Shown in pieces: positions 28,685 through 63,997 of a stretch of 64,000 bases of DNA. Within the stretch, counting starts at the first letter, position 1; each line of letters opens with the position of its first letter. A program made the translations under genes and the position numbers. The notes below the pieces were generated by a model. The model had not been told where the DNA came from, made no database searches, and saw nothing but the letters and a program-made list of their open reading frames with translations. Source of the stretch: Bilabrum cf. latius (taxonomy: Eukaryota); the NCBI GenBank assembly GCA_965178125.1, contig OZ237739.1, forward strand, positions 1,240,001-1,304,000. Reading direction: 5' to 3'.

Positions 28685-28972
28685 AGTCGTGACTCGTGAG
28701 TCTCGTGGTACACCATCTACAGATCTGGCGAGGGGTGCGAGGGGAAACCAAAACCAAAGGTGCTGCGGCCAGGTAGTGGGCCTGGCGCCTTTGCCGGTCC
28801 TGGAGCTTTGTGCGTGGCTAAGCCCGGTGCGGCCGCAAGGTGCATCAGGGTGCACACGAGCGCGTTGACGATGATAGTCGCGCTTTTTTTTGTAGTACTT
28901 CAGGCCATATACGCCAAATGCAGGTGCCCGTGTGGATGGCCCCGCATGCACAAGACACACACATGCAACTGA

Positions 28973-28996
28973 GAAATACAGAAATACAGAAATACA
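28973..28996 (-). repeat. (TGTATTTC)3 tandem tail at the 3' end of the LINE
   Basis: GAAATACA occurs three times on the plus strand, abutting the left candidate TSD about 210 bp beyond the ORF stop. Confidence 0.7.
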
Positions 28997-29204
28997 TTGT
29001 TGGGTAAAGATTCCACAAGCACCCAGATGCACCGTTGCCCCCGAAGGAGTTCGAGTGATCACCTGAATCCAGAGGAGTCCTCAAACAAGGACTACAAGAC
29101 CCCCGACCCTTTCAGGCCAAAGGCCCCCCAATCTCAGCCTACACCGCCGAGTCCCCTTTATTCGCCATCAATGTGGTCCCCCACAAGCCCTCAGCCTGAT
29201 GCCT

Positions 29205-32200
29205 TCACAGGGAGAAAGCATACAGGTGCGGAGCATGTGCCCGGCACAAAGCGCGGTCCAGTCCCACATCAGGGTCCCCTGCCGGGACCCACCATTTCCT
29301 CCTCCATGACCGTCTCTGCGTCTCACGATCCTTCAGAGAGGCTAGCATGCACGCGCTCATGCCTTTGGCCCATTGCCTCTCTATGTCCCTTAGCAAGCCG
29401 TGGGGCTTAAACATCCGTCGCTGTAGCCGAGCGTTCGCATTGGTTGCCGCTATCAGCTCTTGCGTGGCCGTGGCGGCAAGAGCAGCCGCCGCATCGCCTC
29501 GCATCCACTGCCTGCACGTCAGCTACTCCTGCTAGCGCAGCTGGTTCCTGATCACCTGCACCACTCGGTTGGCCAGCTCCTTGACAGCTGTCCGTTCCGA
29601 TGACCGCGCAATCGTACGCTCTATCCGAGTGAGTGCGTCTTCGACGATTGGCTTGGCCCTGCTGGTGCGCTCCAGCTTCTCGTCCCAAGGGTCCTGAGCG
29701 AGAGCTGTCTTCGCCCATGCTTTCCGGAGGGAGGCAGGGGACCTCCCTCTATTCTGATCCGCATCATCGGGTTGCCACGGTCTCGTTCCGGCATGATGGT
29801 CATGCTCGGCCCGCTCCATCTGCTCTACCGCGGTGCCCATCACTTGAAGGTTGGGCGTGCCCTGTTGCGGGTATTGTCCAGCTCGGATGCGCAGAATTCG
29901 TCTTCCTTGGTGGCCGTATTCCTGCACCACCGCTGCTGTTGGCATGGCTCCTGGTCCGAAGGCATACCGTCCCTTCGTTGCGTACCGGTTAAGCATGACC
30001 ACTCCGAGCGCAGCTCTCTCCCGGTCCCAATCCGACAGTGCCGGATCGTGCGAGCATCCCAGGCTCAGGCTTGTGAACGATCGGTCAGCAGCTCCGGATT
30101 TGGATTTCCTCCACTTTGTGACTTTTTTTGCAGTCTCCTGGCATCCCAGCCAGTCCTTCGCGTCATCGATCCGGTGGGTCCACCCTGCCATCTTGATCCT
30201 GAATCCCAGTGCCAGCGCGGCCCCGAGTGGGCCTGTCTGTACTGGTGGTCCCTGCAGGAATCGGCCCTGGTGGATGAACCTGGCCGCAACATCAAGGCCC
30301 TTCTTCGAGGGACACTCGATCAGGTCCAGCAGGCCCATAGCAACACGCCCTGCTGCCGATGCCGTCAGCAGCTCAGTGTCCATCGCAAGGTTTGGCACGT
30401 ATCGACCGCCCATGGTGAAGGGCCTTACCTGTGTCGATCCGCTGACAATCATCCAGCGCGTATCCAGCAGGAATTTGTCCAGCATCTTGAGAACTTCCAG
30501 GTTCAGTTCCATCCCGTAGAAAACTTGGGAACCATATCCTAATCCTGACAAGGTGTCCCATCCTGTTGCACATGCCGCTGCCTCTGCTCCGTAGAATGCA
30601 CTCGTGATTGCTCCTGCATGGAGCAGCTGGGCGTGCAGGGAGACCGCCCAGTTGCCGTTCACCGCCGCTCGTGTGATGTCCCTGGCCGCCCGGTACGCCA
30701 TCGCAATCCTCCTGCGTACGTGGGGTGCCATATCAATTACCCAGATGTCTCTCGCCTGCGTCAGCCCAGCTACTTCATCTGGGCTGATCCGTACTGGTTG
30801 GGTCGAAATGAGTAGACCGAGGTACAGGTAGGATGAGGCAAGTGGGATGGTCCACTCCCCATCCGTCTCTCCCGCGTCCGCTGCTCTGCATGCGACGCCC
30901 TCTGGTATGTCCCCAGGAATTGAGTCCCGAGCGTAGCCAAAGGCCATGATCGCTGTCTTGGTTCCCTGGCCCGATGCTGTCAGGGGCTTGATTCCCAGCT
31001 ACATGCCCGCAAGTGCAAACAGGCTCTTGACTAGCTTCATGACCGCCACTGCTTCGTTCCAGTTCGACGTCAGTGCCACGTAGTCGTCTGCGTACCCGAC
31101 TTGTCCACATTCAACGTATCGTCCGGTGTCGGTCACGATCCTTTGATGGTGCCCGTGCTGGAGCCTCTCTTTCCGCAGCGTTTCCAGGAGAACCCCCATC
31201 AGTACCAGGAAGATGGTGGGAGACAGAATCTCGCCCTAGGGGGTGCCCGCCGTCTTCTGCACTCTGGTAGAGACCCTCCTGGTGAGTGGGTCTCGAACGC
31301 GGATGGCCACCTGCATGCGGGCCATGAGAAAGCGGACCGTCTGGCGTCCCCATCCTTGCTCCGTCATGATGGCCTCGATGATGTTCCACTTGCAACTGTC
31401 AAATGCTCCTTTGATGTCAAAGAATACCAGAAAACCTCCAGCACCCCTTCGTTGGGTAATCCATTCCATCACCGCTGAGTAGGCCTGCTGGCAGTTCTTG
31501 CCGATGCGAAATCCGGCCTAATCCTGGCCGAAGAGTCCGTGGTTTTCGCAGTACCACATGACCTTCTGGTTTGCGATGGTGCTTACGACCTTCGAGAGAG
31601 CCGAGGTCCAGCATATTGGCCTGAATTCGTCGACTCCTGTGACTCCTGTGCCCTGCTTGCGCTTGGAGACCGGCCGCATGAACCCCTCCTGAAAGGCCTC
31701 AGGCTGAATCCCCGAGAAGAGTGTGAGATTATAAATGGCCCTGAGGAGGTCCAACAGAGCGTCACTTCGCCGCAGACACCCGTCCTCCTCAGAGCATGGC
31801 TAGCATTTGGTCAGCAATTCCGCCCTGATCCCATCAGGTCCCACAGCTTTGTTGTGCTTGAGCTTGTCCAGTGCTTGATCCACCTCTGCGTTCGACCTGC
31901 AGAATAGGTTGAGCGGTGTCGCTGCCCTGGGCATGTGCGGCGCAATCCTGGCCATAAATCCGCCCACATCCGCACTTCCATTCCCACCTGCGTGAGAGAG
32001 CTGCTGTGCGTGTGCCTCTAGGATATCCTCGACGGCCGTAAGCACCTCTCCGCCTAGGTTCGTGATTGGTTCCAGTCCTGGTGCAGCTCGTTGCCTTCTA
32101 GAGATTGCATCAGCGATCTATCGGTGGGCTTCCCTCGGACTTGCTGTTCCCAGCATGTTCCGCAGTGCGTGGCCCGTCCTGCGTGCCCCTCGCTCGGTGG

Positions 32201-33656
32201 TCTCGAAGACAGCCCGTCGATCATGGTCCAGGTTGGCAAGGAGCATCGTCCAGTACTCCTGTCCCTCATGGGCCTACTGGTTCACCTCTGTGCTCCCCCA
32301 GAGTGTTGCCTGCATCCGTCCATCTAGCCCCCGCTGTCGCCCTTCGAGGCGCAGGCTGGCTCGGCGATGTGCAGCCAAGCATGTTCTGGCCTCTGAAAGA
32401 GCTTGTTCCGTGGTTGGTCCCGCGATAAGGGCCTTGAGGCTGGCATGGGCTTTTCCCCACGTTTCAGCCCATCTCGTCCGTGCCGCCCAGGTCCTGCGGT
32501 GGCGCTTGCGTGACGCTTCCACGTGCCCGGCCTGGCCGGTGTTTGTCATTTGTCGGCCTGTAACAGTCTCGGCTGCTGCCGTGAAACATCCTTGCAGAAG
32601 CAGTTTGACGGAGGACACGGCCTGCGTAACCGCTTGCCCTGCAGCCTCTCCGTCAGCCGAGGTTCCCGTCGAGCTTTTGAGGTCGCGAATTGCGTCGAGC
32701 ACACAATGAGTGATGTCGCGGACTGCACTTGTAGCCTACCCGAATTCCTTGACGTAATAGTCCCAAACCAGGCGTTCTTGCTGCACATGCATGTCGGACA
32801 CCCGTGAGTACGCTGCCCTGAAGGGGGCGTCATCGTCCTGCTCCGTTGTTGCTGGGACTGCAGTTGCTCGCGTTGCCGGGTCCTCCACTTCTGGGACTGT
32901 GACCAGCAGGTCTGCAATCACCCCCGTGTGGTCTGAATATGTGCCTGGCTCTTGAGCCACTTCACTGGACACTAGCTGCAGCTGCGCAGAAGTGGAGATG
33001 CAGATGGCATCCAGTGTGTTGCCTCCTCTGTGCGTAGGCCCGCCCCCTGCAGGTGCTCGGTACATGTCGATCATGCCCATGTCGTTCTCCAGATACCAGT
33101 CCATCTGACCAGCTCCCTCTTGGTCCCGGGCCTACGTCGGGTTGAAGTCACCGGTAACCACAAGTCGGTCCCTGGTGAAATTGCCTGCCGGTCCTTGACT
33201 CCGTCGCTGTCCAAGGGTCAGCTGGGGATCGACCACGAAAGCCTTGCCCAATACTGAGCCCCTTGTCTCTGCCCCGAGGGCAGCCCCTTGCGGTGGGTTG
33301 TAGCAGGCTATCACCGTCAGCATGCGTCGGTCGTGGTGCAGGACGTCACATACGAGGCAGTCCGGCGCATCCAGGTCATCATCTCCCATGTCTGCCCACC
33401 GTCTCAGTGCGAGGCCTGAATCTCGTTTGACGGCGACGCATACCCCGTGTGGGGCTCCGTTTCCTGCCCTCGTCTCCATCGCGTACAGGTCCGGGACGTC
33501 AGTGACGTAGCGTCCTCTAGCATCCTGTGTCTCCGTGCCAACAAACACATCGGGCATCTTGGTCTCCGTAAGGGCAACCTCCATCGCTTCGAGGTTCCCT
33601 TTGCGTCCCAGATTTTTGGTTGCAATCCTGACGTACTTGGGCGGGGTCGTGTCCAT
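29205..33656 (-). CDS. APE endonuclease-reverse transcriptase polyprotein, ~1483 aa with TAG=Gln
   Basis: APE motifs: IATKN, VGTET, GVCVAVK, ACYNPP, GDFN, PTH...TLDAI, SDH. RT motifs: KAVGPDGI, FRPICW, *AGFR, FFDIKGAFDS, GTP*GEILSP, GYADD, YLYLGL. Ten TAGs, no frameshift, ends at TGA. Confidence 0.92.
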
Positions 33657-33715
33657 GATCCTGATCTGATCCCAGCCCCCGCGAGTACCTTGGACGACTA
33701 ACCTTGAAACTGAGA

Positions 33716-33921
33716 TTGATAGGTCAGGGTTGCGTGTGGTGCGCAGCCCTAATCTGCAGGCCGTTGCTCGGATGATCCCTGGCTTTGGAGCCGCCGAGCC
33801 GAGCAAGGATGAGATGGATTCTCTCGAGTCTTTCGCCCGCAGCTGCAGAAGGGAGGAGGAGTACGAAGACGTTGTCAACCACGCTGAGACGTTGGATTAT
33901 GTTGATACGGGCTCCGATTAA
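33716..33921 (+). other. Orphan 3' coding segment, possibly the remainder of an exon interrupted by the LINE
   Basis: Protein-like frame ending TAA (…RVVRSPNLQAVARMIPGFG…DYVDTGSD). It joins in frame to 28896-28974 once the LINE and one TSD copy are removed. Confidence 0.4.
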
Positions 33922-35953: not shown

Positions 35954-38900
35954 TCAGCCATGCATGGCTGTCGCCATCTTCGACAAAATCGCCTCCATCA
36001 CCTCATGCGCCAGCTTCGCATTCACCCGCTGGTTCCTCCCGAAGTCCACACCTTTTCCTCCAGTCCCCGAGCAGCAGCCGCACCCTGCACAGGCCTGCGG
36101 GGAGCAGCAAAAGAGCGTGCGCCGCACGCTCAGCGGCAACGAGCTCCAGATAACAGCCCCCACTTCAGCTGCTGCCGGCCAGCAGTACTCCTCCGGATCG
36201 TTCCATGGATCCCTCGTCACCTGTCTCCTCTCCTCTGACGCGTTCTTCACGTTGATAGGGGGGTCAGTATCGTATCCTACGTGCAGCAGATCCCGGATCT
36301 GAGAGACCTTTTTCCCCGCTGAGCAGTGCACCATGATGATGGCCTTGTCCTGATCAAAGTGGTAGAATCTCTCGAGGAAGGTCTTGACTTGCCCCGGCGT
36401 AGACAGCACGAAGACGTAGACCACACCGGGCTGGAAGTCTGCACCCATAGAAATCTCCTCTGTGAACTTGACTTGGTGGGCATTGGCGCCTGCACTTGGC
36501 GCACGATCTCGCATTTTAGGCACGGGTGCAGGGACGGGGAGCTCGATCTTACCGCCGTGCCCATCTATAGCACGGGCGCGGGAACCAGACTAGCCCTTCG
36601 TTTTGCGCTGCTGCGCGTGGCCCTGGCTCTTGCTTGTCGAGCAACCTCTGCTGTTGAGGGCAACATGCAGCGTGCTCGGGGCAGCCTGTCCATTGGTGTC
36701 CACATCTGCCTGCAGCGTGCTCGGGGCAGCCTGTCCACTGGTGTCCACATCTGCCTGCAGCGTGCTCGGGGCAGCCTGTCCACTGGTGTCCACACCTGCC
36801 TGCAGCGTGCTCGAGACACCCTGTCCACTGGTGTCCACACCTGCCTGCAGCGTGCTCGGGGCAGTCTGTCCATTGGTGTCCACACCTGCCTGCAGCGTGC
36901 TCGGGGCAGCCTGTCCACTGGTGTCCACACCTGCCTGCAGCGTGCTCGGGGCAGCCTGTCCACTGGTGTCCACACCTGCCTGCAGCGTGCTCGGGGCAGC
37001 CTGTCCACTGGTGTCCACACCTGCCTGCAGCGTGCTCGGGGCAGCCTGTCCACTGGTGTCCACACCTGCCTGCAGCGTGCTCGGGGCAGCCTGTCCACTG
37101 GTGTCCACATCTGCCTGCAGCGTGCTCGGGGCAGCCTGTCCACTGGTGTCCACACCTGCCTGCAGCGTGCTCGGGGCAGCCTGTCCATTGGTGTCCACAT
37201 CTGCCTGCAGCGTGCTCGGGGCAGCCTGTCCACTGGTGTCCACACCTGCCTGCAGCGTGCTCGGGGCAGCCTGTCCACTGGTGTCCACATCTGCCTGCAG
37301 CGTGCTCGGGGCAGCCTGTCCACTGGTGTCCACATCTGCCTGCAGCGTGCTCGGGGCAGCCTGTCCACTGGTGTCCACATCTGCCTGCAGCGTGCTCGGG
37401 GCAGCCTGTCCACTGGTGCCCACATCTGCCTGTCGACTGGTGTCCACACCTGCCTGCAGCGTGCTCGGGGCAGCCTGTCCATTGGTGTCCACACCTGCCT
37501 GCAGCGTGCTCGGGGCAGCCTGTCCATTGGTGTCCACATCTGCCTGCAGCGTGCTCGGGGCAGCCTGTCCACTGGTGTCCACACCTGCCTGCAGCGTGCT
37601 CGGGGCAGCCTGTCCACTGGTGTCCACACCTGCCTGCAGCGTGCTCGGGGCAGCCTGTCCACTGGTGTCCACACCTGCCTGCAGCGTGCTCGGGGCAGCC
37701 TGTCCACTGGTGTCCACACCTGCCTGCAGCGTGCTCGGGGCAGCCTGTCCACTGGTGTCCACACCTGCCTGCAGCGTGCTCGGGGCAGCCTGTCCACTGG
37801 TGTCCACACCTGCCTGCAGCGTGCTCGGGGCAGCCTGTCCACTGGTGTCCACATCTGCCTACAGCGTGCTCGAGCCGCTTGCATCATCGGAGACCGCAAG
37901 GCTCGGGTGCCTTGCTTCAGAGCCGTCATAGCTGGAGTCGTCTTGGCTTGACTCCGTAGGTGAGCTAACGCTGCCCGGTAGTTTCCAAGTACCCAGATTG
38001 TCTGTCCACGAGGGCGGATCCTCAGTCGATTGCTGGCCGGGATTGCGACCGAACTGCGTGATGCTCTTGTTTCGATCGCCCGTGGTGGTGTCATCTTGCT
38101 GATCCTGCGAGCTGTACGTATTTGAGCTCACAAAATGATACTCCTAGATTTCGAACCCGAGCTTAAGCAGGAGCTCCATGACGCCCCGAGCCCCGGCGGG
38201 CTTTCGCACGCTCTGTGCATCTCGAAGCGCAGTTTTCTACATGGCGCGGTTACCCGCGGGCGCTATAGGGGCAGATTTGTGCTTGCCACGCTGTTTCCAC
38301 CGCGCCAGCTCGCCGTCCTGGTCGGGTGCTCCAAACATGAATGCGAATCGCAGATGCCTGGTGGAGTGTCGCTGAGTGTTTCTGGCAGCGTCAAAAATAC
38401 TGCGACTTCGCTGCATGCGTTTGCTTGCCGAGCTGGCCATAGTGATATGCTGCCACACAAAATGCGCAAGCATCCCTGGGGCTGCTACCATGGAGGTCAT
38501 GAGCCGACCGGATGCTGTATGGGCCAGCTTTGGAGGTTGGTCATCCCCGGTCCTCAGGCTGTTCATTCTTGCTGCGGAAGCGAGTTCCGTTGCCTGTGCC
38601 AAGAGGTGCACGTCTTGCTGCGGAAGCAGGCTCTGGGCTGCAACAAGTCGCCGCAGCTCAGGACTGTGGCTGTAGGCAAAGCTAAGGTCCCCAACGGCAT
38701 CGCTCGCAAGCATCGTGACAGCAAGTGCGACAATAGACAGGAACACATGCACGGGATCAACGCTCTGGTCCAACGGCTTGCTGAATGCAAATAGTCCAAT
38801 CGCCGTGTGCAGCACGGCGTAGAGTAGTAATAGCAGCTAGACCACTGCAAACAGCAGGCCAGGAGCCGCGATGAACGCATCGCCTACCTGCCGACCATCT

Positions 38901-62677: not shown

Positions 62678-63997
62678 ATGGCGGAAAGCTCGCCAATTCA
62701 CGTGGTTCTCCTTGGTGACTCTACCCTTGATAATGTTGTGTGGGTGGGGGATCCAGGTGAAGCGGTTCCCAGCGTGTTGCAGTCGGAGCTCGCATCTGGC
62801 GCAGGCGGCGATGGAACCGCAACGGATGTCCGTGTCACAAACTATGCGGCGGATGGCTTCACTGCAGGAGATGTATTGAGAGGCAATGGAGCAACGATAA
62901 GCTGGAAGCGGCGCAAGGACACGGGGGATCCATTCCCGACATCGTCACCGTTTGAGACATTTCAGCCCCTCGTTTTCCTCGATTCTCTATTTCCTGCCAA
63001 ACCAGACGATAAAGAGGGCGGTTCTCCGACCCATGTTTTGTTGAGCGTCGGTGGGAATGATGTTAGGCACGTGCTCGGCGACATGCTCTCGCTGCCGGAC
63101 GCACTGAGGAGCCTTGTGGCCTCGTACTCGGGCGTTCTTGAGCAACTGCTCGCCATGAGGGAAAAGCACGGCGTACAAGTGGCCATCATGACCCAGTACC
63201 AGCCATGCTTTGCTACAGACTCAGAGTACTACGGCGTGTATTCCAGCCTGGCAAGCGCCGCAGGAGCGCTCGGTGTGGGGGGCGGTGCCAGCCTGAGTGG
63301 TGCCGGCGGGACCTCGCGCAGCGCGGTAATCGCCACTGGATCTGCCGTCCTACTGGCGGTAATGCGGCAGGTGTACGCCCCCATCATGGCCCTCGCATCC
63401 AAGCACCGCATCCCCGTGATCGACCTGGCCTCCTCCCTCGACCCCAGGGAGGCCTCGCTCTACTCGCACCAGATCGAGCCAAGTGCCGCGGGGGGCAAGC
63501 TGATCGCACAGCTTGCGGCGCACGTGATAGCTCGTCATGACTTCAAAGGGGCGGCAAAGGTGTACCGGGTTGAGCCTCCCTCGACTGCGAGGGCAGCTGG
63601 TGCTGGTGCTGGTGCTGGTGCTGGTGCTGGTGCTGGTGCTGGTGCTGGTGCTGGTGCTGGTGCTGGTGCTGGTGCTGGTGCTGGTGCTGGTGCTGGTGCT
63701 GGTGCTGGTGCTGGTGCTGGTGCTGGTGCTGGTGCTGGTGCTGGTGCTGGTGCTGGTGCTGGTGCTGGTGCTGGTGCTGGTGCTGGTGCTGGTGCTGGTG
63801 CTGGTGCTGGTGCTGGTGCTGGTGCTGGTGCTGGTGCTGGCACCAAGGCGGAAGCGTCAGGAGGTGGTGCCGCACCCGCTGCCAGCGGTGGAGAGAAGTG
63901 CGGCGAGACCGAGAGAGACGCCGAGAGAGAGGGCATCTCTGTTGTGGCCAGCGATTTGGGCGACGGTGCTGCATGGGCTCCGAAGGCTTTCACCTGA
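62678..63997 (+). CDS. SGNH/GDSL-like hydrolase-fold protein with poly(Ala-Gly) tract
   Basis: VVLLGDSTLDN (block I), NYAADG (block II), LSVGGND (block III), HQIEPSAAGG at the block V position. Ends at TGA. Confidence 0.82.
   Translation: MAESSPIHVVLLGDSTLDNVVWVGDPGEAVPSVLQSELASGAGGDGTATDVRVTNYAADGFTAGDVLRGNGATISWKRRKDTGDPFPTSSPFETFQPLVFLDSLFPAKPDDKEGGSPTHVLLSVGGNDVRHVLGDMLSLPDALRSLVASYSGVLEQLLAMREKHGVQVAIMTQYQPCFATDSEYYGVYSSLASAAGALGVGGGASLSGAGGTSRSAVIATGSAVLLAVMRQVYAPIMALASKHRIPVIDLASSLDPREASLYSHQIEPSAAGGKLIAQLAAHVIARHDFKGAAKVYRVEPPSTARAAGAGAGAGAGAGAGAGAGAGAGAGAGAGAGAGAGAGAGAGAGAGAGAGAGAGAGAGAGAGAGAGAGAGAGAGAGAGAGAGAGTKAEASGGGAAPAASGGEKCGETERDAEREGISVVASDLGDGAAWAPKAFT
63596..63840 (+). repeat. 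Perfect (GCTGGT)n hexanucleotide microsatellite, about 41 copies, encoding poly(AG)
   Basis: Directly visible and in frame within the SGNH ORF. Confidence 0.97.

Follow-up and report, generated by a model that had tools for sequence, protein, structure and literature searches.

A 5′-truncated daughter of a young LINE family with a giant single open reading frame in a UAG-glutamine host, and a predicted membrane and protease module ahead of its endonuclease and reverse transcriptase

Long interspersed nuclear elements (LINEs) are mobilised by target-primed reverse transcription, in which an apurinic-type endonuclease (APE) nicks the target and the reverse transcriptase (RT) copies the element RNA from its tail, and most of the copies end early. 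The proteins of LINEs are generally viewed as soluble, cytosolic and nuclear. The elements of the RTE group are short and contain one open reading frame (ORF) with APE and RT, which begins at or near the APE, and a tandem-repeat tail; the elements of the Dualen/RandI group contain a single ORF of about 3,000 amino acids with a Josephin-like protease. In the available text of PMC4640811, the APE-encoding groups of elements without long terminal repeats (non-LTR elements) are L1, RTE, I and CR1, Dualen/RandI is listed with an APE plus a restriction-like endonuclease (RLE) and RNase H, and NeSL and Utopia-1_TSP are named as protease-bearing elements. The available text of PMC11687900 describes nuclear codes in which only UAG is read as glutamine in Iotanema spirale, Protocruzia tuzeti and two phyllopharyngean ciliates. 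Here, a LINE copy was analysed in a window of 64,000 nucleotides of Bilabrum cf. latius (contig OZ237739.1, positions 1,240,001 to 1,304,000; G000:C5:1240001-1304000), whose genome of 48.6 Mb is gene-dense and contains about 60% GC.

The window was found to contain a truncated daughter of a young, recently mobile LINE family which, with near certainty, is built on a giant single ORF in a host that reads TAG as glutamine. The search of the genome with the element returned 51 matches, 37 of which (at least 485 bp) were 98-100% identical and were assigned to family A, and 8 were 85-89% identical and were assigned to family B. The copies were found to share a common 3′ end with variable 5′ ends, and target duplications of 5-12 bp were present at 24 of the 44 junctions examined. 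The mean pairwise divergence among 35 family-A copies was 0.57%, with several source lineages, and two of the copies (L010 and L064) differed at 2 of 5,960 sites; no premature TAA or TGA and no deleted bases were found in any of the 23 family-A copies compared. Eleven other copies reached further upstream than the window copy, in frame. The longest copy, L064 (C22:766160-774640, 8,481 bp, bounded by TAGACGTAA), contained a single 2,736-codon ORF with 20 TAG codons, and the ATG of the window copy was found to be its Met1254.

The empty site of L064 was found on C14, with flanks that were identical over 1,318 nt and 99.9% identical over 712 nt, and a joined contig skipping 8,480 nt at the site was present in run X2. 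A filled and an empty site were thus seen for L064, but no joined form of the window copy's own site was seen in the sequencing-run contigs. The segments at about 764.7-776 kb of C22 and about 274.9-276.9 kb of C14 were found to be a near-identical duplicated segment or haplotype pair, one filled and one empty. The first 282 nt of the element were present in L064 alone, but this stretch has an internal repeat that matches element sequence at 77% over 75 nt, and a family-B copy was homologous to L064 from nucleotide 531. Four further families of the host were separated by RT identity, C at 54%, D at 44%, E at 29% and F at 24-25%. The Rfam scan of both full-length loci (L064 and the family-F copy L093) returned no match.

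Some of the family-A copies (L008, L010, L011/L030, L085 and L088) were found to be nested in other LINEs, either inside family C or at the 3′ ends of D and F in antisense orientation. The copy pairs with near-equal 5′ truncation were L001/L005 (3759/3763), L012/L013 (4357/4359), L030/L104 (6952) and L094/L095 (7035), and such shared truncation points suggest hotspots at which the RT stops. Another family-A copy (L065, C43:151810-152125) was split by an insertion of about 314 bp.

The single ORFs of the long copies were found to contain 2,736 aa in L064, at least 2,556 aa in L067, 2,935 aa in L093 and at least 2,084 aa in L090. In family A, the N-terminal part opened with a hydrophobic start (residues 3-21), after which came a region with Cys residues and an internal repeat, then a basic stretch carrying RRARR and then hydrophobic segments. 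The hydrophobic 19-mers at 302-320 and 394-412 both recurred in family B, and a segment at about 343-378 was noted by eye, below the cut-off in A. These were followed by an RG box at 478, a Q/P-rich tract and a region with GYC(670) and GGH(929), then the APE from about 1260 and the RT. In family F, L093 occupied 9.2 kb between CTCTACA duplications and contained in-frame stops in its 191-nt 5′ untranslated region (UTR), followed by one ORF of 2,935 codons. Its order was a hydrophobic start, a hydrophobic segment at 131-149 with basic residues after it, NGLC(633), GGH(940), the APE at 1431 and YADD at 2289. Among the Met-started 30-mers (82 in A and 75 in F), the first 30 residues of the ORF were found to rank first in both families for their most hydrophobic 12-mer.

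The motifs GYC..D.L and H[YF]SAV were conserved among families A, B and C at 22% identity, with HFSAV in C, and family F carried NGLCW..GGHY with Cys and then His in the same order as in A. Conserved Cys and His motifs, as looked for in an OTU/papain-like protease, were thus present at residues 640-950 in A, B, C and F. The ratio of nonsynonymous to synonymous substitution rates (dN/dS) between A and B was 0.21-0.42 in the N-terminal part (0.36-0.42 in the membrane region, 0.24-0.25 in the basic region and 0.23 in the protease-like region) and 0.08-0.16 in the APE, RT and C-terminus, with 0.08 in the RT. By these ratios, the N-terminal part is under purifying selection.

The insertion sites were found to contain a motif, C[AT]C[GA][CT][AT]A[CT] (CACGYWAC-like), within 45 nt upstream on the element strand at 28 of 36 sites, 25 of these at 10-19 nt. 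The same pattern was present at 0/36 sites in antisense, 1/36 downstream and 0-1/36 in shifted windows, with a maximum of 5 in 1,000 shuffles. The count drops 8 of 44 loci, 6 behind the element's own tail and two with unclear junctions (L066 and L100), of which L066 later showed the motif. A stricter pattern, set before the second batch of sites, was present at 3 of 11 new sites versus 2 of 2,840 window tiles, and its core at 6 of 11 versus 7 of 2,840. The 50 nt upstream of the insertions contained 44% GC, and in the window the motif was found between two divergent gene pairs. The reading of the motif as a splice donor was ruled out, as several instances begin with AT and not GT on the other strand. 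Six copies were found directly behind another copy's tail. The sequence TACCCAAC just before the tail (window 28997-29010) resembles the target motif, which may explain these tandem insertions behind existing copies.

The reading favoured here, at a probability of about 60%, is that the sequence of the element encodes a membrane-anchored polyprotein with a signal peptide, helices, an RG region for RNA binding and a Cys-His protease that releases the APE-RT part. The signal peptide and the hydrophobic helices would anchor the nascent protein at the endoplasmic reticulum or the nuclear envelope, the RG/basic region would bind the element RNA in place of an ORF1 protein, and the putative protease domain with Cys670 and His929 would free the APE-RT ribonucleoprotein. 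The motif would mark AT-rich intergenic, probably promoter, DNA and would steer insertion in the gene-dense genome.

Several points weigh against this polyprotein reading. The N-termini of A and F gave no significant match in BLASTP (best E=0.55); the common architecture is based on order, hydrophobicity and two short motifs. The protease-like region was found to have no match in Pfam, the PDB or, in a remote-homologue search, 1.84 billion representatives, and the N-terminal region had no database match beyond two fragments of a family-B copy. The Cys and His are 259 and 307 aa apart, a long spacing for an OTU domain, and a further hydrophobic 19-mer (A 794-812) lies inside the protease-like region. 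The signal and membrane calls were made from Kyte-Doolittle windows and not by a trained predictor, and the basic stretch at about 240-292, before the first helix, is ill-suited to a luminal position. AlphaFold on 3-sequence alignments gave no usable fold, with a predicted local distance difference test (pLDDT) score of 35 for residues 601-1000 and 32 for residues 1-450; Foldseek of the former returned no match at E<=0.001, a result which is meaningless given the model. The assembly was found to contain one full-length copy each for families A and F, residues 1 to about 90 of A rest on one copy, and the 5′ end of L064 opens with an A-run, so that this copy, too, could be clipped. Several truncated long copies (L062, for example) have near-identical daughters, and therefore the extreme N-terminus may be dispensable. 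The motif pattern was fitted to the same sites in which it was counted, and some sites have repeated flanks, leaving about 24 of 32 with the motif after collapsing by eye. Relative to gene starts, the motif did no better than random positions in a wider test, and the promoter character of the marked DNA is therefore putative.

The N-terminal 1,250 residues might instead be a soluble, fused equivalent of ORF1 that combines RNA binding with other folded domains, with the hydrophobic segments as buried helices and the Cys and His as non-catalytic residues. The RG box and the Q-rich tract would suit RNA binding in such a protein, and the protease and the membrane topology are without structural or profile support; yet the most hydrophobic Met-started segment lies exactly at the ORF start in two families which are about 24% identical in the RT, and in the comparison of A with C the Cys and His motifs rank with the blocks of highest conservation. 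This reading is a less probable alternative to the polyprotein reading.

An envelope-like LINE was also considered, in which an N-terminal surface glycoprotein would allow export of the ribonucleoprotein in vesicles and its entry into other cells, as env does in some LTR elements. Its proposed parts are a signal peptide, a Cys-rich ectodomain, RRARR as a furin-like site and a membrane anchor, an order with which the hydropathy is compatible. Within residues 20-154 of A, 7 Cys, the internal repeat and, at 69, an N-glycosylation sequon were found; in both A and B, RRARR lies ahead of the first helix, and the order of signal and anchor recurs in F. As stated in the available text of PMC13524379, env with a signal peptide and a transmembrane domain is widespread in Ty3/gypsy elements. 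The putative luminal part, however, differs in length between A (about 280 aa) and F (about 100 aa), the two resemble neither each other nor any fusogen, and AlphaFold gave no fold (pLDDT 32). The elements moreover form a group from one host that has no close relatives in metagenomes, a pattern that does not point to wide infectious spread, and this reading is improbable. The broader proposal of an undescribed LINE lineage whose single polyprotein opens with a glycoprotein module, secreted or membrane-bound, and a protease for processing, as a non-LTR counterpart of env-carrying retroelements that could pass between cells, confined by its TAG coding to hosts of that code and steered by the motif, is a speculation that we consider unlikely.

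The window copy itself was described in the first-pass annotation as an intact element with an APE-RT ORF of about 1,483 codons, 10 TAGs and no frameshift, TAA or TGA, a leader of about 50 nt, no ORF1 and a (TGTATTTC)3 tail. The ORF and the tail were borne out by the frame translation and the boundaries, and the features of the copy are as follows.

29205..33656, minus strand: ORF of the window copy, residues 1254-2736 of the element's single 2,736-codon ORF; its ATG is the internal Met1254
codons 175, 307, 461, 513, 619, 713, 807, 886, 1375 and 1378 of this ORF, minus strand: TAG codons read as glutamine
32928..33635, minus strand: APE-type endonuclease domain, with KNL, GTE, CYNP, GDFN, TLD and SDH motifs conserved in families A, B, E and F
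30957..31889, minus strand: non-LTR RT domain, Pfam RVT_1 at E=1.8e-17, with YADD at codon 855
29208..30809, minus strand: thumb and C-terminal region, conserved in all six host LINE families; A-vs-B dN/dS 0.15-0.16
28997..29204, minus strand: 3′ UTR of 208 nt, with AATAAA at 29157-29162
28972..28996, minus strand: (TGTATTTC)3 tail, AGAAATAC repeated 3.1 times; 3′ end common to nearly all copies
33657..33695, minus strand: in-frame coding remnant of 39 nt upstream of Met1254, reaching the 5′ truncation point; not a leader
33696..33707, minus strand: non-element junction sequence of 12 nt at the 5′ junction
33708..33715, unstranded: target-site duplication on the 5′ side, 8 bp, AACTGAGA
28967..28974, unstranded: target-site duplication on the 3′ side, 8 bp, AACTGAGA
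33729..33736, minus strand: CACGCAAC, the host motif preceding most insertion sites of this family

The ORF (33656-29205) contained 1,483 codons with 10 TAG and no internal TAA or TGA, and ended with TGA; about 33 TAA/TGA are expected in the frame from base composition, and the probability of an open frame is about 3e-15. The Pfam scan of this ORF detected RVT_1 as the sole domain with no direct APE match, and the APE motifs from the KNL of the N14 region onward aligned with the Pfam-labelled APE of protein P0001. The best PDB matches of the RT were R2 and L1 ORF2. RNase H, RLE and CCHC or zinc knuckle were not recognised by Pfam or in the C-terminal motif alignment, which divergent domains could escape.

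The copy is a 5′-truncated daughter which is without the 1,253 N-terminal residues of the full element. It is not intact, because the element sequence starts at 33695, between the 8-bp duplications, and longer copies extend upstream in frame. The supposed leader was found to be 39 nt of in-frame coding sequence followed upstream by the 12-nt non-element junction, and family B is without the Met at this place. The absence of ORF1 was likewise not upheld, since the longer copies run upstream in frame with no stop for up to 3.76 kb. At window 33717-33921, on the plus strand, a short open frame adjoins the insertion and may belong to a small gene interrupted at the 5′ end by the element.

The model of a complete 4.7-kb single-ORF element of the RTE type is very improbable for the window copy and is refuted as a description of the family. 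The ORF does contain the whole APE and RT with the ATG 39 nt inside the junction, the copy L005 is clipped at the same place with its junction to the host flank present in two 'RNA?' runs of one study, and an APE-RT protein alone might be expressed from host promoters. Against these stand the eleven copies extending upstream in frame, the missing Met of family B and an RT tree which, among unlabelled references, gave no RTE grouping, and further copy pairs likewise share truncation points.

The ten TAG codons of the window ORF were all found to be fixed in family A, in 12-22 of 12-22 copies per site, and family B contained CAG or CAA at 7 of the 10 sites. Decay of this one copy was thereby ruled out. 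The TAG at codons 713 and 807 occupied invariant Q columns across the six host LINE families and aligned to the conserved Gln of the R2 motifs QRGF and KQGD, as had been noted for two TAGs at core RT motifs. Opposite TAG in the alignment of the LINE families, Q was the commonest residue (34/218), versus 372/1,619 for CAA/CAG. Among the 11 host genes of the window, 35 in-frame TAG were found and the ends were 10 TGA and 1 TAA; PRP8 was a single frame of 2,788 codons with 4 TAG, and TOP3B also carried in-frame TAG. A single tRNA gene with a CUA anticodon was found at G000:C23:907607-907679 (L032), with 63 of 780 tRNA candidates scored. It is supported by these observations that UAG is a sense codon for glutamine in the host nuclear code, with UAA and UGA as stops. 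The host-gene evidence for glutamine itself is thin (N34/Q25 at TOP3B site 71, mostly E at site 867 and one PRP8 site opposite His), and the identity of the residue rests mainly on the LINE families, with their invariant Q columns and the exchange with CAG/CAA. Neither nonsense mutation in a dead copy nor sequencing error can account for the TAGs, given their fixation and exchange with CAG/CAA, the TAG of PRP8 and TOP3B and the CUA tRNA.

TAG made up 10 of the 80 Gln codons in the window ORF versus 35 of 348 in the 11 host genes; the use of TAG in the element is therefore like that of the host and looks like drift during residence under the host code, not special adaptation. The first-pass description of a potentially active element adapted to UAG as glutamine was sound as to a young, recently mobile family, but 'adapted' was too strong. 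The standard-code ORFs within the frame of the window copy were of 174 and 471 aa, and it is a reasonable inference that, once transferred to a standard-code host, the element would yield a protein ending short of the RT. The expectation that standard pipelines would call the element dead was matched by the database protein P0003, which stops exactly before a family-B TAG. The code shares a sense UAG, the stops UAA and UGA and a CUA tRNA with the codes of Iotanema spirale, Protocruzia tuzeti and the phyllopharyngeans in the available text of PMC11687900; unlike those hosts, the present one looks stramenopile-like, a weak placement from TOP3B matches and an 18S gene judged by eye. No report of a UAG-glutamine-only nuclear code in stramenopiles was found in the literature at the level of titles and listings, and the host may be a new case. 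The use of the host code by the element is expected and is its least surprising aspect.

The LINE assignment was supported by a non-LTR RT, an APE upstream of the RT, the absence of LTRs, the common 3′ end, 5′ truncation and target duplications. The RT tree contained 22 unlabelled LINE RTs as references (21 of 50 metagenome loci and P0001), with no named RTE reference among them, and the six host RTs were placed on one side of a 100/99 branch, for which long-branch effects are possible. The 50 metagenome loci with a related RT were all distant, with RT identity of at most 25-28% over long matches, viral contigs contained no relatives of the element, and the word-indexed homologue search with the RT region gave one weak match. 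The host RTs did not group with L130, the single sampled RT carrying DUF6451, a domain linked to RTE. The six families thus appear to form a divergent, long-branch RT group of their own. The likeness to RTE proposed earlier holds for one ORF carrying APE and RT and for the short tandem-repeat tail, but membership is not supported by size or architecture (8,481 bp, with the APE only from about residue 1260 of 2,736). The tails of the other families were (CT)n, (CCTT)n, (ATC)n and (GATTTCA)n.

No sequencing run was recorded as RNA; X5 is labelled 'RNA? (probably DNA)', and X5 and X7 are from one study. One X5 contig terminated at 33950 with poly(T), immediately beyond the AATAAA of OGG1, which suggests mRNA. 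In X5 and X7, an APE-RT contig was found to run into the host flank of L005, which is clipped like the window copy. Such a contig hints, weakly, at transcription of clipped copies from the adjoining host sequence. The 5′ half of the element had low or no cover in both runs and the 5′ junction of the window copy was not among the listed ends; neither was counted as evidence.

Other observations were made in the genome and the window. C95:6099-7900 (L112) contained a second 18S gene of 1.8 kb, very different from the ribosomal DNA array of C12 (L113) and probably from another eukaryote in the assembly. C111 (L031, L046) was a mitochondrion-like contig with a TCA-anticodon tRNA, which suggests that UGA is read as Trp there. 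The window contained about 27 copies of a 45-bp coding repeat at 36666-37872 in an ORF of 1,747 aa with no Pfam match, and (GCTGGT)41 at 63596-63840, a Gly-Ala run in an ORF of 439 aa.

If the polyprotein reading is true, a module of signal peptide, membrane segments and protease on an APE-RT protein would give LINEs a membrane stage, for entry into the nucleus or exit from the cell. Six divergent RT families are present in current databases only as fragments broken at TAG, so alternative-code protists hide whole lineages of retrotransposons. The target motif, with its specific strand and distance, adds another mechanism of interest.

No LINE with a signal peptide or membrane segment was found in literature listings or in the available text of PMC13524379, PMC4640811, PMC11687900 and PMC5753468; Repbase, supplements and subscription papers lay outside this scope and may describe similar elements. 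The element is like the L1, RTE, I and CR1 groups in the order of APE and then RT, the common 3′ end with a simple-repeat tail, 5′ truncation and short target duplications, whereas it contains one ORF of 2,700-2,900 codons with about 1,250-1,430 residues before the APE in place of a separate ORF1 or a short leader. Unlike RTE, it is 8.5-9.2 kb with a large N-terminal extension. The very long single ORF with a protease-like region before the APE and RT resembles Dualen/RandI, but no RNase H, RLE or zinc knuckle was found by the searches above, and an N-terminal signal peptide and helices are predicted. A cysteine protease or protease-like domain N-terminal to the RT in one protein and a target preference are shared with NeSL and Utopia-1_TSP as they appear in the available text of PMC4640811; those elements contain a C-terminal RLE, whereas the present one contains an APE, no Ulp1 match and predicted membrane segments. 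With the env-carrying LTR elements (errantiviruses, in the available text of PMC13524379) it shares a retroelement-encoded, here predicted, signal peptide and transmembrane segment; their env is separate and related to the F or gB fusogens, whereas the segment here is fused to the LINE polyprotein and is without similarity to fusogens.

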